From Limnochordia bacterium (GTDB lineage Bacteria; Bacillota; Limnochordia; DTU080): a DNA stretch of 64,000 nt. The stretch is from NCBI GenBank assembly GCA_050951545.1, contig JBMNJG010000010.1:1-64000 (forward strand), in the 5' to 3' direction. How positions within the stretch are numbered: position 1 is the first letter of the stretch; every line of letters begins with the position of its first letter. Both the position numbers and the translations under genes were made by a program. This document shows positions 13,047-64,000 of this stretch, piece after piece. The notes under the pieces were generated by a model. That model ran no database searches. It was not told the DNA's origin and worked only from the letters and a program-made list of their open reading frames with translations.

Positions 13047-14914
13047 CTGGTTTTCCGCACCCCCTAGGATGGGCCTAGGGGTTTACCTGAACTCGTAGCA
13101 GGAGATATCTTCCAAATCGCGAACCCTTCAGAAATGCCGTAATGAAGGGACGCGTGGCGAATGGACGACATCGAAATCACGCCAGTTCATGTGGGCGCAA
13201 GCGGATTCATTGCAGCGATCTGCCGAGAACTTGGGATCGCGGGGATGATCAACCGTTCCGTGCGTTGGGATGAGAAACAGTGGAAGGTGTCGCCGGGCAC
13301 CCGGGCGGTTGCTCTGATCATCAACATTTTGGTGGCGCGGCGCCCCCTTTACCGCGTATGGGAGTCTTTCGAGCGGCTTGACCTCCCCGTTTTGTTTGAC
13401 GAGCCCGTGGAGTTGAATGACCTCAATGATGATGGGTTTGGACGTACGCTCGACAGGTTGCATGAGTCGGATGAGCTACGCAAGATCACCAGCTCGGTAG
13501 CGTTGGCTGCTACCAGGCGGTTGCCTTTGGGGATCAGATCCGTTCATGCCGATACGACCACCCTATCGCTGGCCGGCAGATACGAGCCGACCGAGAGTGA
13601 CTTGGCCTTTTTGGAGGAGAATCCAGATCGCTCTTTGCTGAACATCACCTACGGCCACAGCAAGGCTAAGCGGCCGGATCTGAAGCAAGTCTCCTATGGG
13701 CTCGTGGTCACTAGCGAAGGCATGCCTGTCTTGGGCAACGTCAACGACGGCAACCTGAGCGACAAGGTGTGGAGCAGTGAGGTTCTCGGTGAGATCGAGA
13801 CGAGCTTCCTTGATCCGGGACAGATCGTGTACGTAGCTGATTCTGCCTTGATCACTACGGGTAATCTGGAACAAATGGCCGAGCAAAAGATCCGTTTCAT
13901 CTCCCGGCTGCCAGGGACGTATGGCCTAGTTGATGACCTGAAAGAGAAGGCCTGGAAGCAGGGCCGTTGGGAATTCATTGGCCGAGTTAGCCTTAGCGAA
14001 AAAGGCGCCAAGTACCGGGCGCAAAGCCACATGGATACATTAGGGGGTCGCCCCTATCGTTTCGTCGTGGTCCATTCTGACGCCCTGGAAAAGCAGAAGG
14101 GCAGAAGCCTGCAAAAGGCGGTAAAGCGGGAGTCTCAGCTAATTGAGAAGGCACAGGCCAAGCTGCAGAAGCAACGCTTCGAGTGTATGGGCGACGCTCA
14201 GAAAGCCCTTGACGATTTCTGCAACGAACATCGCCGATCGCGTCACCAACTCAAAGGTCGTGTCATCGCCGAGAATGTCGTAAAGCGACCTCCGGGGCGC
14301 CCTGCCAAAGACGCCAAACCGCCAACGGTTGTCGAGTACAGCGTTGAAGTACAGGTAGTCGCACCATCGGAGACGGCACTACGTGTCGAGCAGGAACTGG
14401 CCGGGACCTTTGTCCTCATCACTACTTTGCCGGAGGATGAATGGAGCAACACGGAGATTCTTGAGGAGTACAAGGGCCAGACCAGCGTGGAAACCCGCTT
14501 CCGCAACCTCAAAGCCGACCCATGTATCGTGGACACCCTATACGTCAACTCATCTCGCCGGGCGGAAGCACTCGCCTACCTGTTTCTCTTGGCTTTGATT
14601 GTGGCTTCGTATATCGAAGTGCGGGTCCGCCAGGAGCTCAAAAAACGCCAAAGACCCTTTCTGGTTCCAGGGAACCGTTGGACCGAACGCCCAACGATGA
14701 GCATGATTTTCGACATTCTCAGTGGCGTTCAGATCCTCAAACTCTGCAACGGCACAATAACTCGACGAAGGTTGCCTTCGAACATCGATCCGCGCGTGTA
14801 CGAGCTCCTGGAACTCACGGGCCTTGATCACAAGGCCTACACCCATGTGAGCTATGCTACGTAACCCGTGGCCAAAAACCAGGGGGGGTCAGGCAGAAGG
14901 GTGCGGAAAACCAG
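13047..14914 (+). mobile_element. IS1634-family insertion sequence, 1868 bp, apparently intact
   Basis: Perfect 16-bp TIR CTGGTTTTCCGCACCC (13047-62) / GGGTGCGGAAAACCAG (14899-914); 6-bp target duplication ATACAC (13041-46, 14915-20). Confidence 0.92.
13161..14864 (+). CDS. IS1634-family DDE transposase
   Basis: LNDDGFGRTLDRL, HADTTT, YGHSKAKRPDLKQ, GNLSDK, YVADSAL and YKGQTSVETRFRNLK motifs. Confidence 0.92.
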   Translation: MDDIEITPVHVGASGFIAAICRELGIAGMINRSVRWDEKQWKVSPGTRAVALIINILVARRPLYRVWESFERLDLPVLFDEPVELNDLNDDGFGRTLDRLHESDELRKITSSVALAATRRLPLGIRSVHADTTTLSLAGRYEPTESDLAFLEENPDRSLLNITYGHSKAKRPDLKQVSYGLVVTSEGMPVLGNVNDGNLSDKVWSSEVLGEIETSFLDPGQIVYVADSALITTGNLEQMAEQKIRFISRLPGTYGLVDDLKEKAWKQGRWEFIGRVSLSEKGAKYRAQSHMDTLGGRPYRFVVVHSDALEKQKGRSLQKAVKRESQLIEKAQAKLQKQRFECMGDAQKALDDFCNEHRRSRHQLKGRVIAENVVKRPPGRPAKDAKPPTVVEYSVEVQVVAPSETALRVEQELAGTFVLITTLPEDEWSNTEILEEYKGQTSVETRFRNLKADPCIVDTLYVNSSRRAEALAYLFLLALIVASYIEVRVRQELKKRQRPFLVPGNRWTERPTMSMIFDILSGVQILKLCNGTITRRRLPSNIDPRVYELLELTGLDHKAYTHVSYAT

Positions 14915-28276: not shown

Positions 28277-28576
28277 CTACCCACTCACCGTGTGTATGAC
28301 GTGAGGGCACAGCCCAGCTAAGTCTGGTTGAGCCAGCCGTTGCCCGCAAGCTACAGCCTATGGCGTACTCCCGCAAGCCACGGCGGGCTGAGGAGAGCGC
28401 GTCAAGCAAGCGCTCAGCTTGTCACAAACACCCAAACCCCTTAGGGCCAGATGTGCTGTGTTGCCACGTTTCGCCATGACATGCCGATTCGCCTGGCCTT
28501 GAACCCCACTGGAGGATTCACCCCTATGCCGGGATCCCCTTGAACCCCCGACGGCGACATCAGAGAGGCCACCACC

Positions 28577-30065
28577 GGGACTACACACGGAACCGCGGTG
28601 ATCCGCCTACGTTCGCTTGGATTGGTGGTAAGAACCTAGCGATGCGGTCTTCGCGAAGCCCTTTTTGCTCATTTTGACCGCCCGAAGGGCTCTTTTCCCC
28701 GCCTAAGGGCACACTTTCCCGCCTTGATTCCGCTTCTGGAGCCTCCGGGCGGTACATAACCGAACAGTGTCGCTCGCCTTTTTCCACTCAGCCGATTTGG
28801 GGTCAGCTCCCCAGTGCGCGATCACGGCGGGCTCACTCGGGTCCCTCTGCGGACCGACCCTTCGGTGTTGCCCCGGTCGGTGCATTTCGAAAAAGGTGGA
28901 CAGATGCAATGGACGCGCTCGCGAAACAGGCCCTGCAGTCAGACAACAGCCGGCTTGGTATGTGAGGCCAGGCCAAGAATCCGACCGCGATGGCAAAAGA
29001 GCCGCCTCATTAACCCCCGGGCCCAATGTACGTGGTAAAAGTGCAGCGATGCGGCCTTCGCGGAGCCCTTTTTGCTCATTTTGACCGCCCGAAGGGCTCA
29101 TTTCCCCGCCAAAGAGCACGCTTTCCCGCCTTGATTCCGCTTCTGGGGCTACCGGGCAGCACATAACCGAACGGTGGTGACTGCCTTTTTCCCACTCAGC
29201 CGATTTGGGGTCAGCTCCCCAGTGCGCGATCACGGCGGGCTCACTCAGGTCCCTCTGCGGACCGACCCTTCGGTGTTGCCCCGGTCGGTGCATTTCGAAA
29301 AAGGTGGACAGATGCAATGGACGCGCTCGCGAAACAGGCTCGGTGGTCGGACAACAGCCGGCTTGGTATGTGAGGCCAGGCTAAGGATGCGGCCGCGATG
29401 GCAAGAGAGCCGCCTCATTAGCCTCCGGGGCCAATGTACGTGGTAAAAGTGCAGCGATGCGGCCTTCGCGAAGCCCTTTTGGCTCATTTTGACCGCCCGA
29501 AGGGCCTATTTCCCCGCCTAAGGGCACGCTTTCCCGCCTTGATTTCGCTTCTGGAGCCTCCGGGCGGTACATAACCGAACAGTGTCGCTCGCCTTTTTCC
29601 ACTCAGCCGATGGGGTCAGCTCCCCAGTGCGCGATCACAGCGGGCTCGCTCGGGTCCCTCTGCGGACCGACCCTTCGCTGCTTGCCCCGGTCGGTGCATT
29701 TCGAAAGAAGGTGGACGAGATGCAATGGACGCGCTCGCGAAACAGGCCCTGCAGTCAGACACCACCCGGATTGGTACGTGAGTCGGGGCCAAGAATCCGA
29801 CCGCCATGGCAAAAGAGCCGCCTCATTAACCCCCGGGCCCAATGTACGTGGTAAAAGTGCAGCGATGCGGCCTTCGCGAAGCCCTTTTTGCTCATTTTGA
29901 CCGCCCGAAGGGCTCATTTCCCCGCCCAAGAGCACGCTTTCCCGCCTCTGGTGGCCCTTCTGGAGCTACTGGGCAGTACATAACCCGACGCCAGTGGTGA
30001 TAGCCTTTTTCCACTCAGCCGATGATCCGAGGGCGAAATGCTGTCGACTCCCAGTGGCCACCGGG
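28577..30065 (+). repeat. Tandem array A of ~408-bp units: leader, 3 full units and a partial fourth
   Basis: Anchor AGCGATGCGG at 28638, 29045, 29453 and 29861 (periods 407, 408, 408). Clear similarity ends at ~30023 and is degenerate to ~30065. Confidence 0.95.
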
Positions 30066-30106
30066 TCTTAGTCGGCAATGCGCGCGTTTTCAGCGAAAGC
30101 TGTGGA

Positions 30107-30131
30107 AGGATTCTGGCCTCACGTACCGAAG
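30107..30131 (+). promoter_or_regulatory. SigH-like promoter for the HTH-nuclease gene
   Basis: AGGA (30107-10), 17 nt, GAAG (30128-31); the same geometry recurs upstream of many genes in this window. Confidence 0.5.
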
Positions 30132-30179
30132 ATCGCATCGAGACAATCGAACACACGGTCGTTTTGTGAGGTGAGGCCC

Positions 30180-31241
30180 TTGTACTCTCTCCATGTAGAT
30201 GAGGTGAACGTGCCGCTCTCACTGCTACTGACTCGCGAGTTAAAGGCCAGCGAGAAGATCGTTTGGATGGCCTTAACGATGGATGATCAGCTGGAGGAAA
30301 GTTTCCTTTTCTCGCCCAGCCGCCTGGGGCGGCGCACGGGTATGTCCCGGCCTACCGTTCGCAGGGCGACAGCCAAGTTAACCACCGAGGGCTGGTTTGC
30401 TCCACCAGCTAGGCGGGGTCCTAGCCAGACCGCGGCACAGAAGCCATCCCCGGATAGGGTCTCCGTGCCTGTGGAGCTAGTCATGGCTACTGAAATCCAT
30501 GCACAGGCCAAATTGGTTTATGCCCTACTGCTGTCCAAACCTACGGACCCACCTCGCAAAAGGCAGTTCACATACGCTGAGTTAGCCGGCCGGATGAGTC
30601 TGAGCCCCCAGACCATCAAACACGCAGCTCGTCAGTTGGCCAAGCATGGTTGGCTGGAGATGGAGCAGGCGCACAAGCGGGCACCGATTCGCTTCACTCT
30701 CCACAACCCGGTTGATAAGCGAAATGTAAAAGAAATACTAGACGTGCAGGATGAGCTCCACCGCGCTACGCACCTCGGAGAGGCTCTCATGCAGGCTATC
30801 TTCTTGGCGCTTGTCGATTGCCTTGACTTCGACGACGGAATGCGCCCAGGTTTCATGAGGAACCCAGCAACTGGCAAGCGTCTGGAGGTCGATCTCTTCT
30901 ATTACTTGCACAATACGGCCATGGAGTTCAATGGGGCGCAACACTACCGCGTCACGGAGCGGAATTCGGCTGAGCAGGTCCATAAGCAGCAATGCCGTGA
31001 CCAGACCAAACAGCAGATCTGCGCTAAGAAGAAGATCAAGCTGATCGTGATTCAGGCTCACGAGCTGTCCTGCAATATCATCAAGCGCAAGATTCACAGG
31101 CGGCTGCCATTCCGGCGCGGTCAGGACTTCAACCGGAAGCTCATCAACTATCTCGAGTGTAGATGCGGTGAGTACCAGCAAAGAATAGATGAACGTGGCT
31201 GGGGAACCGCCAGTGAATCTGAGAGAAAGCAAGACGAGTAG
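30180..31241 (+). CDS. Tandem winged-HTH plus C-terminal Vsr/DUF559-like (PD-(D/E)XK-type) putative endonuclease, 353 aa
   Basis: Two repeats of VP..L.....L/I....K.V...L followed by a helix-turn-helix (LGRRTGMSRPTVRRATAKL..EGW; LAGRMSLSPQTIKHAARQL..HGW). C-terminal RPGFMRNPATGKRLEVDLFY..AMEFNGAQHY..QQCRDQTKQQIC..KIKLIVI. Start placed at TTG 30180 after GAGGTG. Confidence 0.75.
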   Translation: MYSLHVDEVNVPLSLLLTRELKASEKIVWMALTMDDQLEESFLFSPSRLGRRTGMSRPTVRRATAKLTTEGWFAPPARRGPSQTAAQKPSPDRVSVPVELVMATEIHAQAKLVYALLLSKPTDPPRKRQFTYAELAGRMSLSPQTIKHAARQLAKHGWLEMEQAHKRAPIRFTLHNPVDKRNVKEILDVQDELHRATHLGEALMQAIFLALVDCLDFDDGMRPGFMRNPATGKRLEVDLFYYLHNTAMEFNGAQHYRVTERNSAEQVHKQQCRDQTKQQICAKKKIKLIVIQAHELSCNIIKRKIHRRLPFRRGQDFNRKLINYLECRCGEYQQRIDERGWGTASESERKQDE

Positions 31242-31701
31242 TCACCTTGGGTTACCTTGTCCGTTTCGTCAGGGCTTACATCAGCCGTGCAGCCAATGGT
31301 ATTCCGCGTCCACCCGCTGCCGGCGATCAGAACACCCCTACACTGATTTTCACTCAGACGGCACCGTGACATAACCAGCAGTTCGTCTGGAAACGCTCAC
31401 ATGACAGACTCAGGGTTCTGGGCGCTGTTGCATTCGTAGCGAGCAAATGACGGGTGCCGTTCTGTTACGAGTCCGACGCGTACTCAGCCTACAGAACCTC
31501 GTCCACCCATACTCCCCGTGGCCCCCTTAGGCGGCAACTCTCAGGTAGCTGGCAACAAGGACCGTTAGGGGCGAAGCCTTTATCCTTGCTGCGCTGCCAG
31601 CCACCTGAGACAATGGAGCGTGTCCAGTTCACCGCCTTTCTCATGTGCAGCTGCCACCACGACGTTCGGTGATGGCCTTCATTAGGTTCATGTCCGGAGA
31701 C

Positions 31702-58436: not shown

Positions 58437-59138
58437 TTGGAGTCAAGGTACCATGTGATGATAGTAGAAGATGATGTGAAAATAGCTGGCATCTTGCACG
58501 GTGAGCTACAGCGGTACGGCCTTGCCACCACCGTAGCGAGCGATTACGCTCACCTGAAAGAGGAAGTCCTAGCAGTGAAACCCGACCTGATACTCCTCGA
58601 TGTCAATCTGCCGTTTTACGATGGCTACTACTGGTGTCGGCAGGTGCGTACTGTGTCGAAGGTACCTATCATATTCATATCAGCGCGCTCAGGAGAAGTC
58701 GATCAAGTGCGGGGTTTGGAGGCCGGTGGGGATGACTACATCCCCAAACCGTTCAGTCTGGAGCTAGTGATGGCCAAGGTACAAAGCACCTTGCGTCGAG
58801 TGTATGGTGAGTACGCAGGTGACGCAACGAGCGACGTGATACAGGTCGGTGACCTTCAGCTAAATCGGCTCACCAACTGCGTATCAACCCGTGTTGGTTG
58901 TCGTGAGGTGTCACCAAAGGAGTTTCGACTGCTATGGGCTCTGGCTCAGCGACCGGGCGAAATAGTCAGCCGCGAGGAACTGCTCGAAGCCCTCTGGGAT
59001 GAGGTGGATTTTGTCGATGACAACACGCTGACCGTCAATGTCAGTCGGGTCCGTCGTCAGCTTGAGGAAGTGGGCCTTGCAGGGGTGATAGAAACCAAAC
59101 GGGGACAGGGGTACATGCTCCGCCTGAAAGGAAGCTGA
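58437..59138 (+). CDS. OmpR-family response regulator, BceR/GraR-like
   Basis: IVEDD, LLDVNLPFYDGYYWCRQVR, PIIFISAR, GGDDYIPKPF, FVDDNTLTVNV.R.R, IETKRGQGY. TTG start inferred from the RBS. Confidence 0.9.
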   Translation: MESRYHVMIVEDDVKIAGILHGELQRYGLATTVASDYAHLKEEVLAVKPDLILLDVNLPFYDGYYWCRQVRTVSKVPIIFISARSGEVDQVRGLEAGGDDYIPKPFSLELVMAKVQSTLRRVYGEYAGDATSDVIQVGDLQLNRLTNCVSTRVGCREVSPKEFRLLWALAQRPGEIVSREELLEALWDEVDFVDDNTLTVNVSRVRRQLEEVGLAGVIETKRGQGYMLRLKGS

Positions 59139-59145
59139 TGCTACC

Positions 59146-60249
59146 GTGTCTTGGCGCACCTATCTTCGCGATCATCTGCCCTTTGTCGCTCTGTTCGTTG
59201 GCTTTGCCCTCGTGACGGTGGCCGTGGTCGAATTGGACTTGCGCCTATCGCAGGGCACACTGCAGTGGGTTAACGCCTTATATATCCTGCTCTTCGCCCT
59301 GGTAGCCTTGAGCGGGGCCCTGCTTACTGATTACTACAGGCAGAAGCCCTTTTTGGTTCAGTTGGGCCAAGTGACTGGCAGTGAGCCCCTGGATCAGTTG
59401 GGCCTACTGGCACCAGCGCATACAGCCGCGCAAGCTCTTGTGAGCGCCGCCTGGGAGCGTCTTTACGGCCGCCTAAGGGCAGAGCTGGTGCAGGAGAGGA
59501 CTCGTAGTCGCCACCAGATCGATATCCTAAGCCAGTGGGCACACCACATGAAAACACCAGTCTCCGTGATAGACCTGGAGCTACAGAAAGCCCATCAGGA
59601 GAGCTACCCACCTGAGGTGCAGGCGGTGATGGATAGCATAAGAGAGGAAAACCAGCGGCTCAACAACTCGTTACAGGCACTACTGAACATGGTGCGGTTG
59701 GAGGACTTCGCCACCGATTTGCGCATAGAGCGAGTTGATCTAGATCAGCTAGTGCGCTCGTTGGTCAACGCGCATAAGCGCGAGTTCATCACCCGTCGAG
59801 TCTATCCGCAAGTGGAAGTAGGTCAGGGAGCAGGCACTGTCGTAGAGACTGATGCCAAGTGGCTTCGATTTGTGTTACAGCAGGTGCTGAGTAACGCCCT
59901 CAAGTACGCTGCGCCAGCGCCAGCTACCGGGCAAATCTGCTTTCGCCTCTACCAAGAACGAGGGGAGACCCTCTTGAGCGTGGAAGACAACGGACCTGGT
60001 ATACCCCCTGAGGATTTGCCGCGTGTGTGTCAGCCCTTCTTCACTGGGCAAAACGGGCGCCTTCATCCGGCTGCCACAGGCATGGGACTCTACTTTGCCG
60101 CCGAGGTTTGCAGACGCCTGGACCACCGACTGGTAGTAGAGTCGCTTGTGGGCCAAGGGACCACGGTACGCATTGGTTTTCCCGCTGGGCGCACTATTTT
60201 TTCCGATTTAGAAGAGCAGGCCCGTGAGATGCCGCTACCTCCAACATGA
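59146..60249 (+). CDS. Intramembrane-sensing histidine kinase, BceS/GraS-like
   Basis: Two N-terminal TM helices with a short loop; WAHHMKTPVS, TDAKWL.FVL.Q..SNALKY, DNGPGIP..DLPRV..PFFTG.NG, TGMGLY. Confidence 0.9.
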   Translation: MSWRTYLRDHLPFVALFVGFALVTVAVVELDLRLSQGTLQWVNALYILLFALVALSGALLTDYYRQKPFLVQLGQVTGSEPLDQLGLLAPAHTAAQALVSAAWERLYGRLRAELVQERTRSRHQIDILSQWAHHMKTPVSVIDLELQKAHQESYPPEVQAVMDSIREENQRLNNSLQALLNMVRLEDFATDLRIERVDLDQLVRSLVNAHKREFITRRVYPQVEVGQGAGTVVETDAKWLRFVLQQVLSNALKYAAPAPATGQICFRLYQERGETLLSVEDNGPGIPPEDLPRVCQPFFTGQNGRLHPAATGMGLYFAAEVCRRLDHRLVVESLVGQGTTVRIGFPAGRTIFSDLEEQAREMPLPPT

Positions 60250-60272
60250 CAGAAATGAAAGGTTGCTGCAAG
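60247..60272 (+). promoter_or_regulatory. Candidate BceR-type operator
   Basis: TGACA-GAAA-TGAAAG (60247-61), one mismatch from the TNACA-N4-TGTAA consensus, plus a second half-site TGCAAG (60267-72), directly after the kinase. Confidence 0.45.
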
Positions 60273-61515
60273 TCAGATCGATGGGGCCACGCAAAAAAAT
60301 GCGGTAATCTCCCTGCGTTCGCTGGGGTTGGTGGTAAGAACCTAGCGATGCGGTCTTCGCGAAGCCCTTTTTGCTCATTTTGATCGCCCGAAGGGCTCTT
60401 TTCCCCGCCTAAGGGCACACTTTCCCGCCTTGATTTCGCTTCTGGGGTTACCGGGCAGCACATAACCGAACGGTAGTGACTGCCTTTTCCCACTCAGACG
60501 ATTGGGTCAGCTCTCCAGTGCGCGATCACAGCGGGCTCGCTCGGATCCCTCTGCGGACCAACCCTTCGGTGTTAACCCGGTCGGTGTGTTTCGAAAAGGG
60601 TGGACGGACACCATGCACCATGCACACGCTCGCGAGACTGGCTCGGTAGTCGGACAGATGCACCCGGATTGGTACGTGAGTCGGGGCCAAGAATCCGACC
60701 ATGATGGCAAAAGAGCCGCCCCATTAACCCCCGGGCCCAATGTACGTGGTAAAAGTGCAGCGATGCGGCCTTCGCGAAGCCCTTTTTGCTCATTTTGATC
60801 GCCCGAAGGGCTCATTTCCCCGCCCAAGAGCACGCTTTCTCGTCTCAGCGGCCCTTCTGGAGCTACTGGGCAGCACATAACCGAACGGTAGTGACTGCCT
60901 TTTCCCACTCAGACGATTGGATCCGCTCTCCAGTGCGCGATCACAGCGGGCTCGCTCGGATCCCTCTGCGGACCAACCCTTCGGTGTTGCCCCGGTCGGT
61001 GCATTTCGAAAAAGGTGGGCAGACACCATGCACACGCTCGCGAGACTGGCTCGGTAGTCGGACAGATGCACCCGGATTGGTACGTGAGTCGGGGCCAAGA
61101 ATCCGACCGCGATGGCAAAAGAGCCGCCCCATTAACCCCCGGAGCCAGTGTGCGTGGTAAAAGTGCAGCGATGCGGTCTTCGCGAAGCCCTTTTTGCTCA
61201 TTTTGATCGCCCGAAGGGCTCATTTCCCCGCCCAAGAGCACGCTTTCTCGTCTCAGCGGCCCTTCTGGAGCTACCGGGCAGCACATAACCGAACGGTAGT
61301 GACTGCCTTTTCCCACTCAGACGATTGGATCCGCTCTCCAGTGCGCGATCACAGCGGGCTCGCTCGGATCCCTCTGCGGACCAACCCTTCGGTGTTGCCC
61401 CGTGTTTTTGATAGCCTCAAGTAGGGCCAAATGATCATCGAGAATGAGGCCACCAAAATTATCCAATTCCCTGTATGCTTGAGTTGCGAAACAGAGCATA
61501 CGGGGGGAAACTGGA

Positions 61516-63033
61516 GTGGTTAAGGTGGCCAAGGTTAAGGATATCATTCATCTCTACGAACGGGAAGACTGGTCCAAGCGAAAGATTGCGAAGCATTTCG
61601 GGATTTCGAGGGGGACAGTGGATCGCGTGGTGGCCAACCCCGACAGATATCTGCCAAAGTCGGAGCCTGTCGATCGCACGTCGTCAAAGATGACCACCCA
61701 GATCATGGCCTTCATCGATGGCATCATCGAGAGCGACAAGAAGATCAACCGCAAGCAGCGCCATACGAGCAGGCGGATATGGGAAAGGGTCATTGAGGAG
61801 TTTGGCGAGGACAGCTCGCCGGCAGAGTCGACGGTACGGCGGTATGTGGGTAAGGTTAAGAAGCGCAATCCCGAGCCGTTCATCCCCCTGGGCTTCGTTG
61901 CGGGGCAGAGCATGCAAGGGGATTTTGGAGAGGTCACGGTAAAGATCGACGGTGAGAAGTGCAGAGTCTATTTCTGGGCACAACGCTTGAGTTACAGCAG
62001 AGCCACATGCGTCGGCGTATACCCCCGAGCGACTCAGGAGTGCTTTCTGGACGGCCAGCAACGGGCGCTGCAGTTCTTCGATGGCGTCCCGGTGATGCAT
62101 ATCATCGACAATCTGAAGGCCGCTATCAAGAGTGGCTTAGGCAGAAACGCCGTTGAGACCGAGCGCTACGATGCCTTTCAGACTCACTACGGCTTTCGTA
62201 CGGAGGCCTGCAACGGAGCTTCAGGCAACGAAAAAGGCCAGGTAGAAAGCCTTGTGGGGTTCGTCCAGAGAAACTGGTTCTCCGGATTGCCTGAGTTCAA
62301 TGCCTGGGAAGAGCTGATCGCGTATGTGGACACGCAAAACGTGCGTTACCTAAAGCGTCACCACCCGGAGGAGCCAGGGCGTACGGTGGGCGAGCTCCTC
62401 GAAGAGGAACGCCGCGTCTTACGAGCGCTTCCACCACCTTTCCGGTGCTGCAAAGAGGGCCCGGTAACGGCTTCGAAGACCAGCCTCGTGACATATGACA
62501 CAAACCAGTATTCTGTTCCGACGGAGAAACGACTGGAAGCGCTGACTCTTAGGGCCTATCCTTGGCATGTTGAAGTCCTCTGTGACCACCAGGTGATCGC
62601 GACGCACGTCAGGTCATACGTAAAGCGGACCGTCTCCTTTGAACTATCGCATTACCTGACGGCATTACTGCGCAAACCCCGTGCTCTGCCGTTTGCGAAG
62701 CCATTCCAGCGGGCTCGCCTCGAGCCCATCATGCGGCAGCTCTATGATCGTCTGCTTGAGGTGGACCCCGATCGCGCTAATCGTCGCTGGATAGAGATTG
62801 CCATCTGGGGTCTGGAGTTGGACCCAGCCAGGTTCTACAGAACTATTGAGCAGGCACTTAAGCTGGACCGATTTGATATGGAAAGCCTTCGTTACCTCCA
62901 CACCCAGTTGGATTTGGAGCCGGGTCAGCCCAAGTCAAAACCGGCGAAGGTTGAGGATCGCCTGAGCTTCTCAATCGTACACGAATCGATCAATCGCTTC
63001 TCAGAGCTTCTTTCGGGGGGCATGGGCCTGTGA
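61516..63033 (+). CDS. istA: IS21 transposase IstA
   Basis: N-terminal HTH; RKQRHT..RIW, QGDFG, LSYSR, FFDGVP...IDNLK, GNEKGQVE..V, NQYSVP. Confidence 0.92.
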   Translation: MVKVAKVKDIIHLYEREDWSKRKIAKHFGISRGTVDRVVANPDRYLPKSEPVDRTSSKMTTQIMAFIDGIIESDKKINRKQRHTSRRIWERVIEEFGEDSSPAESTVRRYVGKVKKRNPEPFIPLGFVAGQSMQGDFGEVTVKIDGEKCRVYFWAQRLSYSRATCVGVYPRATQECFLDGQQRALQFFDGVPVMHIIDNLKAAIKSGLGRNAVETERYDAFQTHYGFRTEACNGASGNEKGQVESLVGFVQRNWFSGLPEFNAWEELIAYVDTQNVRYLKRHHPEEPGRTVGELLEEERRVLRALPPPFRCCKEGPVTASKTSLVTYDTNQYSVPTEKRLEALTLRAYPWHVEVLCDHQVIATHVRSYVKRTVSFELSHYLTALLRKPRALPFAKPFQRARLEPIMRQLYDRLLEVDPDRANRRWIEIAIWGLELDPARFYRTIEQALKLDRFDMESLRYLHTQLDLEPGQPKSKPAKVEDRLSFSIVHESINRFSELLSGGMGL

Positions 63034-63795
63034 GTACAGAGGTGATACCTTCTTTACCTCAAGACGCTTGGACTACCCGGTATTGCCCGTTCCTATGAGA
63101 AACTAGCCGCTCAGGCCCGGCGCGACCGTTGTGGATACGAGGAGTTCCTGCAGAGCCTTTTGCAGGAGGAGTTGCAGAATCGCAAAGTGTGCCGTGTTCG
63201 GACGCTCCTCAAATCGGCACGATTCCCTCTGCTGAAGCAGCTAGACACGTTTGAGTTCGACGAAATCCCTTCTCTCAACCGACAAGTGGTGAAGGAGCTC
63301 GCCAGAAATCACTACATCCCCGCTAAGGAAAACGTCCTGATCTGTGGCAACAGCGGCACGGGAAAGACACATGTCGCCACCGCGTTAGGCATATCAGCCT
63401 GCGAAGCTGGGTACCGGGTCCGTTTCACCACAACGCAAGCGCTGGCAAACGACCTGCTTGCAGCCAGGGAGGAGCATTCACTCAACCGGTACGAAAAGCA
63501 GTGGTCGAGGATCGATTTGGCGATCATCGACGAGCTGGGGTACTTGCCATTCGATGCGACTACGGCTCAACTCCTATTCCAGTTCATCTCCGCCCGCTAC
63601 GAACTCGGGAGCATCATGATCACTACCAATCTCGAGTTTGCTCAGTGGACGGAAGTCTTCGGTGATGAGCGCATGACGATTGCCCTGCTCGACAGGCTGA
63701 CCCATCGTGCACACATCCTACTCATGAACGGAGAAAGCTATCGGTTCAAGAACAACCGGCGCGCCGGCCAAGGAGGTGATGCGCCGAGCGCGTAA
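63030..63795 (+). CDS. istB: IS21 helper ATPase IstB, with an apparent +1 frameshift near 63048-63054
   Basis: GNSGTGKTH Walker A, IIDELGY, ITTN, ALLDRLTH. The IstB-like N-terminus YLKTLGLPGI..YEEFL lies in frame upstream of 63160, but the GTG at 63030 is one base out of frame. Confidence 0.85.
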
Positions 63796-64000
63796 CCCCG
63801 ACAGGGTGGCTCTATTCTGGTGATCAAATGGCCTCATTCTCGATTGACAAACACACCCCGGTCGGTGCATTTCGAAAAAGGTGGGCAGACACCATGGACA
63901 CGCTCGCGAAACAGGCCCTGCAGTCAGGCACCAGCCGGATTGGTACGTGAGTCGGGGCCAAGAATCCGACCGCCATGGCAAAAGAGCCGCCTCATTAGCC

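Follow-up and report, generated by a model that had tools for sequence, protein, structure and literature searches.

Why do two tandem arrays of long units stand behind the same leader at two unrelated places on one contig? The arrays lie in a 64,000-nucleotide stretch of DNA from a Limnochordia bacterium (GenBank assembly GCA_050951545.1, contig JBMNJG010000010.1, forward strand), hereafter called the window, which is the first 64 kb of contig C10 in a genome of 3.64 Mb, 16 contigs and 93.9% completeness. Both have a period of 408 bp, as delimited by Tandem Repeats Finder (TRF), with 3.4 copies at 89% identity in array 1 (28638–30023) and 2.6 copies at 93% in array 2 (60344–61402). An earlier note on this DNA had suggested that the leader marks a fixed end with which the arrays spread. 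Our analysis indicates that the leader is very probably the left terminal inverted repeat and subterminal sequence of an insertion sequence (IS)-like transposable element of 1.9–4.1 kb. This element is dispersed in many copies, has two definable ends, is bordered by target duplications, occurs also as gene-less miniatures, and combines a single open reading frame (ORF) with non-coding units. In our reading these elements form an IS-like family, hitherto undescribed, of Symbiobacteriaceae and Limnochordia relatives; the literature searched, a scope outside which most subscription journals and ISfinder lie, yielded no account of a similar element.

A common left end precedes both arrays

The two arrays share a left end of ~70 nt ahead of unit 1, starting at 28577 and 60283, respectively. 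Within it, the GCGGT motif with which the earlier note opened the leader is found at 28595 and 60301. Of the 55 positions between the start of GCGGT and unit 1, six differ between the leaders, and these are the same six that had been written as dots when the identity of the two leaders was first claimed. A 40-nt leader pattern (two N, up to two mismatches) matches the window at 28610 and 60316 only, and none of 100 shuffled sequences contains it. The internal junctions are indeed of another kind, as had been stated: CGTGGTAAAAGTGCAGCGATGCGG occurs five times in the window, at unit boundaries and nowhere else, and is absent from the shuffles. To the left of the shared end the two loci are mutually unrelated, again in agreement with the earlier reading, array 1 being preceded by non-coding DNA and array 2 by the end of a histidine-kinase gene. 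The leader itself thus stands, and only its left limit had to be moved: copy-to-copy homology begins ~18 nt to the left of GCGGT, at 60283 with GGGGCCACGC and at 28577 with GGGACTACACACGG, a diverged form.

When one 408-bp unit was used as a query, blastn returned 86 matches on 11 of the 16 contigs; these make up 24 arrays or fragments, each of 0.3–5.9 units. The 3' end of the array falls at unit position 175–186 (~183) in 20 of these 24, indicating an array of the form A(BA)n, in which A comprises positions 1–183. The leader is present in 14 arrays and a diverged leader in two more; of the remaining eight, five begin off-phase, one is merely a small fragment, one lies where a contig starts and one is abutted by an IS21 end. 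Several contigs of this genome begin or end within the arrays, which are thus, on the practical side, sites at which assemblies break.

A gene for a 353-residue protein accompanies the arrays. By tblastn it is represented by 15 near-full copies with 95–99% amino-acid identity, always just past an array end (~150 nt), besides two small fragments and 13 paralogues at 46–55% identity. Counted from a TTG start, the 353-codon ORF is intact in 13 of the 15 copies, which are 96.8–99.4% identical in nucleotide sequence.

Ends and target duplications of the element

An inverted repeat of 22 nt, GGGGCCACGCAAAAAACTGCGG, forms the left end of the element and is located where the homology between copies begins (60283 in the window). 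Its right partner, ...CGTGTGCACCC, sits 0.1–0.6 kb beyond the gene. When GGGGCCACGCAAAAAACTGCGG is compared by eye with the reverse complement of the right repeat, GGGTGCACACGTGAAATCGCGG, 13 of 22 positions agree, and a looser likeness extends over ~20 bases more. The 20-mer core of the left repeat (up to four mismatches) has 16 matches in the genome, 11 of them followed directly by the leader and unit 1. After the gene, ~85 nt are common to all copies and are succeeded by three mosaic tail classes, which terminate in ...CGCCGCGATTTCACGTGTGCACCC or ...GACCGCCATTTCTCGTGTGCACTCC. A 17-nt core of the right end (up to three mismatches) gives 24 genome matches, of which ~18 look like true family ends and the others like chance. 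Comparison of the copies across the genome has located both the left boundary and the right repeat.

Seven elements possess both ends, and their flanks were compared. Four are bordered by perfect 9-bp direct repeats: AGCTGCTTG / AGCTGCTTG on C11, CACGCCCGA / CACGCCCGA on C4 at 118 kb, ACCTTCCCT / ACCTTCCCT on C5 at 133 kb and ACCATACGG / ACCATACGG on C7 at 455 kb. The element on C12 has flanks agreeing at 8 of 9 positions (GAGTAAAAT / GAGTAGAAT), that on C4 at 283 kb shows a partial match, and that on C2 has no duplication (4/9). Since a perfect match of the flanking 9-mers is expected by chance at ~4e-6, these repeats represent a 9-bp target duplication. The proposal that the arrays spread as a unit with a fixed left end is borne out: a terminal inverted repeat forms that end, and 9-bp duplications flank entire elements at unrelated loci. 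No empty site was found in two genomes of the same genus, in which the flanks lie on separate contigs and are ~75% alike and the site is not syntenic.

Gene-less derivatives were also observed. A module of ~230–440 bp with a left repeat of its own abuts many copies or forms their tail, and a 54-bp miniature carries the element ends between the flanks GTTACCCTC and GTTGCCCTT, a 7/9 duplication. In addition, a 1.7-kb IS (486-codon frame, ends CAGGACTTCCGCAAG), found at C11:1517–3230 and in the flank of the element at C7:660 kb, abuts two array-element ends, and the look-alike flanks of these two element copies are due to it.

The protein is predicted to join two winged helices to a Vsr-like nuclease domain

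In Pfam, the window protein matches helix-turn-helix (HTH) families alone (HTH_36, MarR, GntR and the like), with no match to DUF559 or DUF2726 at E ≤ 0.1, and a profile search of the PDB with the window protein retrieved HTH proteins only. Among 64 relatives, nine match DUF2726 (best E 4e-5), which we take to be a PD-(D/E)XK family. An AlphaFold2 model based on the alignment of 64 sequences has a mean pLDDT (predicted local distance difference test) of 91.9 and a pTM (predicted template modeling score) of 0.86. In a wide structural search, residues 3–177 match winged-helix proteins, among them the pi initiator in complex with iteron DNA (2nra_C, Z 8.4, 162 residues); RepE (1rep_C) is a weak match with a Foldseek E of 0.038. 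Residues 196–334 match Vsr (1cw0, Z 8.1, root mean square deviation (rmsd) 3.4, 106 residues), the catalytic domain of I-Bth0305I (3r3p, Z 8.1, rmsd 2.9, 93 of 98 residues) and the DUF559-type protein 3hrl (Z 7.7). The α-β-β-β-α-β core of this C-terminal domain superposes on that of Vsr, with scores that are borderline by the search tool's own note.

The conservation pattern is consistent with this assignment: in the 64 sequences, Glu249 and Lys277 are invariant, and Asp238, Gly252, Gln254, His255, Arg273 and Asp274 are conserved at 90% or more. The set formed by Asp238, Glu249, His255 and Lys277 is a putative nuclease active site. The borderline fold matches are backed by the agreement of three features, namely the cover of whole domains, the conserved residues and the DUF2726 matches in 9 of 64 relatives, and the protein as modeled consists of two winged helices and a Vsr-like nuclease domain. 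The name HTH-nuclease used in the earlier note is therefore a fair one for the protein, its role in movement being a separate matter. Neither Pfam nor the predicted fold assigned the window protein to a known catalytic class of transposases (DDE, DEDD, HUH, Ser or Tyr).

The 408-bp units are non-coding and diverse

Protein-coding units were ruled out: the units lack 3-periodicity, contain stops in all six frames and have lengths of 387 to 427 that are not multiples of three. They are far more variable than the gene, with 182 of 402 polymorphic columns (45%) as compared with 37 of 1062 (3.5%), a ~13-fold enrichment in shared polymorphic columns although units and gene travel together; beside these diverse units the gene copies retain 98% nucleotide identity. 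A special mutation spectrum was ruled out as well, the transition:transversion ratio being 2.4 in the arrays and a similar 2.7 in the gene. Segment by segment the units look mosaic, invariant stretches alternating with blocks of a few alternative versions.

The nearest relative of a full unit lies in its own array in 17 of 51 cases and in another array in 34, with nearest-neighbor identities of 85–98%, and identity is 88.9% within arrays against 85.6% between them. The number of units per array ranges from ~1.4 to 5.9. This range and the 17 own-array nearest relatives show that local unequal recombination acts on the arrays too. Contigs from four metatranscriptome runs cover, in the interval 28500–31400, most of the gene and three short array pieces at a depth of 2–7; these data are unstranded and open to DNA carry-over, and their coverage is no evidence of transcription, just as the stretches left uncovered say nothing about its absence.

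Relatives and sister subfamilies

The family is large. A protein library yielded 1582 members at E ≤ 0.001, with 150 clusters at E ≤ 1e-30; it is common in metagenomes, and the record titles, which name Symbiobacteriaceae, Limnochordia, Thermaerobacter and other Bacillota, point to thermophilic Bacillota. Automatic annotation calls its members hypothetical protein or MarR-type (MarR family) regulator. Among 41 related genomes searched, 14 (the source genome included) have a match; the family is multicopy, with up to 17 matches in another genome and none in the two same-genus genomes. Four Staphylococcus phage records match in the C-terminal nuclease domain only. In one Limnochordia genome, a common upstream module is repeated one to three times.

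Three protein subfamilies coexist in the source genome, each traveling with related ends or arrays, and both sister subfamilies adjoin same-strand tandem arrays (262 and 94 bp) that follow the gene. The second, whose protein is 54–55% identical to that of the window, is found at C8:1294–4127, C9:76264–78831, C7:258046–260600 and C13:20683–22338, where the gene is followed by two to three units of a 255–262-bp tandem repeat. This unit has short stretches in common with the 408-bp unit (CGTGGT.AA...GCAGCGATGG and GCACATAAC). Past the array stands an L-type inverted repeat and ahead of the gene an R-type one, which implies that the orientation of gene and array together is reversed with respect to the ends. 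The third subfamily (46–48% protein identity) comprises seven array-bearing loci: C4:95.2–97.1, C5:215.7–217.6, C5:322.3–324.1, C6:141.0–143.0, C7:32.7–34.5, C13:56.3–58.2 and C16:77.9–79.8 kb. They carry 2–4.6 copies of a 94-bp unit ~300 nt past the gene and one unit-like copy ahead of it, and on first look their ends are direct repeats (unit + TGTGTRC).

A model for the element and its alternatives

In the explanation that we favor, the element reads, from left to right, as a left repeat (22 nt, looser to ~40), the leader, the array A(BA)n, the 353-residue protein gene, a mosaic tail of 0.1–0.6 kb and the right repeat, the array of 408-bp units always closing after its 183-nt A part and insertion duplicating 9 bp of the target. 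The protein would be the element's own mobility enzyme. Its winged helices would bind the element ends and probably also repeated sites in the array, as iteron-binding initiators bind repeats, while the nuclease domain would cut the element at its ends and the target with a 9-bp stagger, leaving completion of the insertion to repair or ligation by the host. Unequal recombination between A parts would shift the number of units and leave both array ends fixed. The array would thus act as a binding platform for the protein rather than as an RNA gene. We give the mobilization of the element by the 353-residue protein a reasonable chance, reaching even at best. Its boldest form is tentative: the winged-helix/Vsr-like nuclease would itself be the transposase, of a class outside the known prokaryotic ones, and the array would be a required cis or RNA component, either a multi-site landing platform or an RNA array.

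Several observations weigh against this model. We know of no PD-(D/E)XK protein that carries out transposition alone, and a 9-bp duplication is a signature of DDE transposases; as the genome is 94% complete, a transposase acting in trans could lie in the unassembled part. Foldseek found nothing in the PDB at E ≤ 0.001, and a Z of ~8 is the best score that the search tool usually gives when a model has no clear relative. With agreement at 13/22 positions the inverted repeat is imperfect, and of the seven complete elements one lacks a duplication and one has a partial duplication only. Short motifs common to the ends and the unit, or recurring inside the unit, are near the chance level by our own estimate, for which reason we infer, rather than observe, that the protein binds the array. 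Neither ends nor duplications could be delimited in other genomes, as copies in one Limnochordia genome are 65–83% alike and the few elsewhere that exceed 88% run into contig ends, and the third (94-bp) subfamily has, on first look, neither inverted repeats nor a target duplication. Finally, 5 of the 24 arrays have no leader and start beside unrelated DNA at unit positions 81, 129, 140, 172 and 377; they are located at C14:7985, C5:36951, C6:202743, C7:431542 and C7:662326. Arrays starting at random phases without the leader had been named in advance as the observation that would speak against a fixed left end. They exist as a minority, four of the five retain the downstream gene, and we read all five as probable 5'-truncated copies of the element, which may have arisen through deletion, rearrangement or aberrant insertion.

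The alternative that survives best, although we consider it rather unlikely, is that the protein is a passenger, homing-endonuclease-like or regulatory, and that a conventional transposase encoded elsewhere moves the element in trans through its inverted repeats. DDE chemistry is typically associated with inverted repeats and a 9-bp duplication, the gene-less miniatures show that the ends can function when no copy of the gene is present in cis, and an assembly that is 93.9% complete in 16 contigs leaves room for such an enzyme. Against this reading, the ends were not found on the other repeated elements inspected (the IS21 element and three IS of 1.7–1.9 kb), and the true-looking end matches genome-wide all fall within this family. 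The association of each of the three protein subfamilies with related ends or arrays, and the preservation of the ORF in 13 of 15 copies at 98% nucleotide identity, likewise speak against a passenger.

A second possibility, which we regard as improbable, is that each unit of the array encodes a structured RNA of ~400 nt that acts as guide, scaffold or regulator with the nuclease, as in the non-coding regions of IS110/IS1111 or IS605-TnpB. Such a role would fit the same-strand arrangement of units and gene in all three subfamilies, in spite of their differing order, and the alternation of invariant stretches with blocks of few alternative versions. The covariation data argue otherwise: RNAalifold on the 51 full units gave 60 pairs, two of them with compensatory changes, and a covariation term of -2.5 kcal/mol. 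Our own counts found 2 compensatory pairs among 60 (plus strand) and 7 among 77 (minus strand), where slid controls yield 1–8. A conserved RNA structure in the units is thus not supported, the signal being no better than in the slid controls on either strand, in a test whose power is limited by units that are ~86% alike. Furthermore, no Rfam match was obtained in the window at the gathering score, and a promoter and terminator scan gave one and two sites, the level of shuffled sequence.

The units might also be giant iterons of an integrated replicon, with the protein as a Rep-type initiator fused to a nuclease, but this is very improbable. It would account for the superposition of the N-terminal half on the pi initiator with iteron DNA and, weakly, on RepE. 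It would also suit the weak Pfam matches of relatives to DnaD_N (7/64) and Phage_rep_O (2/64), and the roughly twofold excess of short tandem repeats (15 bp or more) in the 1 kb upstream of relatives' genes, seen at 16 of 44 loci versus 3–12 of 44 in other 1-kb bins. Against it stand the absence of any match to the protein among 72,556 plasmid records, the presence of at least 15 chromosomal copies with target duplications, a unit of 408 bp instead of ~20 bp, and the lack of a Pfam match to a Rep_3-type family in the window protein and its relatives. That the arrays arose separately at each locus by local slippage, the leader being a coincidence or a preferred seed sequence, is hardly credible: the own-array nearest relatives and the higher within-array identity would agree with it, but the identical ends, the fixed phase at both array ends and the same gene behind the arrays do not, and the 9-bp duplications round whole elements at unrelated loci contradict it.

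If the favored model holds and a single protein moves the element, enzymes of the restriction-endonuclease fold could do alone what DDE, DEDD, HUH, serine, tyrosine and Cas1 enzymes are so far credited with, and a large tandem array inside a transposon would need a functional explanation.

The two copies in the window

All features of the two window copies lie on the plus strand. Copy 1 extends from 28577 to ~31383. Its diverged left repeat (GGGACTACACACGGAACCGCGG) and leader occupy 28577–28624, and the left end, when reverse-complemented, closely matches the right end CGCGGCTATTTTCCGTGTGTACTCC of the copy at C7:68.7 kb. Array 1 follows at 28625–30029 (TRF, blastn) with 3.45 units, the last one cut at unit position 183. 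The gene for the 353-residue protein, with its predicted two winged-helix domains and Vsr-like PD-(D/E)XK domain, spans 30180–31241 and has its TTG start behind GAGGTGA. In the tail (31242–31383), likeness to other copies stops ~25 nt before their right repeat, and no recognizable right repeat was found in copy 1.

Copy 2 is preceded by the histidine-kinase ORF (59146–60249), which lies outside the element. It begins with the L-type left terminal inverted repeat GGGGCCACGCAAAAAAATGCGG (60283–60304), followed by the subterminal leader TAATCTCCCTGCGTTCGCTGGGGTTG (60305–60330) that separates this repeat from unit 1. The interval 60331–61402 holds the first two units and the part of unit 3 that ends at unit position 252 (blastn, TRF). 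Array 2 had been described as running through 60283–64000; it is present there, but an IS21-family element interrupts it in unit 3 at 61403–63855, and the remainder of unit 3, from unit position 248, resumes at 63856–64000 (blastn). The insertion belongs to the IS21 family: it has inverted ends of its own, TGTTTTTGATAGCC / TGTGTTTGTCAATC, a 4–5 bp duplication (CCCG) of unit sequence, and istA (61516–63033) and istB (63160–63795), whose products match rve and Mu-transpos_C_2 (first ORF) and IstB_IS21 at 4.5e-66 (second ORF) in Pfam. Further copies of it are found elsewhere in the genome.

The sequence following the window shows that array 2 breaks off sharply at contig position 64047, which is 47 bases past the end of the window and 34 nt into unit 4, and gives way to unrelated DNA with a converging binding-protein gene. 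It had been predicted that a paralog of the nuclease would follow this array or that the copy would be non-autonomous. The first arm failed, as tblastn found no copy of the gene on C10 besides the one after array 1, and the second proved correct: array 2 is a dead, gene-less copy of which the left end and 3.1 units are left, the gene, the right end and everything past position 34 of unit 4 being gone. The response-regulator/kinase flank (58901–60285) is partly duplicated 5.4 kb downstream, at contig positions 65676–66353, with identities of 91%, 78% and, for the last 52 bp, 100%. These degenerate duplicates lead into an ABC-transporter operon without the element. In the 52-bp identical copy (66302–66353) the element is absent and divergence sets in within a GGG run, which places the left boundary there and indicates that the locus was rearranged around the dead element.

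Two other kinds of repeat were noted. A 1.87-kb repeat at 13047–14914 of the window, with at least three genome copies, inverted ends CTGGTTTTCCGCACCC and a 572-codon frame, looks like an ordinary IS. A tandem-repeat scan also brought up arrays resembling clustered regularly interspaced short palindromic repeats (CRISPR), with the repeat types GGTCAATCCCCGCGTGTGCGGGGGAGCC and GTTTCAATCCACGCCCCCGTGCGGGGGGCGAC, at C5:2.1–3.0, C6:153.9–158.4, C16:153.0–157.7 and C9:15.2–16.9 kb.

Comparison with known systems

In its general layout the element resembles IS with inverted repeats and 9-bp duplications, such as those of the IS4/IS5 type: it is multicopy, measures 1.9–4 kb, and has imperfect repeats, one ORF and gene-less miniatures. 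It differs from them in that the ORF has neither a DDE/RNase H fold nor a Pfam transposase family but two winged helices and a Vsr-like nuclease domain as predicted, and in that non-coding 408-bp units in tandem make up about half of the element. A restriction-endonuclease-like nuclease does take part in transposition in Tn7, whose TnsA also carries a winged helix, but TnsA requires the DDE protein TnsB and other Tns proteins. The window protein shares with TnsA the combination of nuclease and winged helix; the domain order is reversed in TnsA, and partner genes are absent from the present element. With the initiators RepE and pi (1rep, 2nra) it has in common a tandem pair of winged-helix domains and a gene adjoining tandem direct repeats, whereas the lack of a plasmid context, units 20-fold longer than iterons, the extra nuclease domain and the transposon-like element set it apart.

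In domain architecture the protein parallels Vsr (1cw0) and the EDxHD homing endonucleases, exemplified by I-Bth0305I (3r3p), in which an N-terminal region for sequence-specific DNA binding is followed by a Vsr-like nuclease domain at the C terminus (PMC3239194). The I-Bth0305I/EDxHD genes reside in group I introns or are free-standing in phage genomes, and the enzymes home into one cognate site (PMC3239194). Unlike these, the gene described here lies between inverted repeats and is found at many unrelated sites with duplications, and its protein is predicted to have winged helices instead of NUMOD motifs. A long non-coding region on the strand of the gene is a feature shared with IS110/IS1111 and IS605-TnpB elements (PMC11187229). 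The present element departs from both in that its non-coding region is a tandem array, yields no RNA-structure evidence and accompanies a different class of enzyme.

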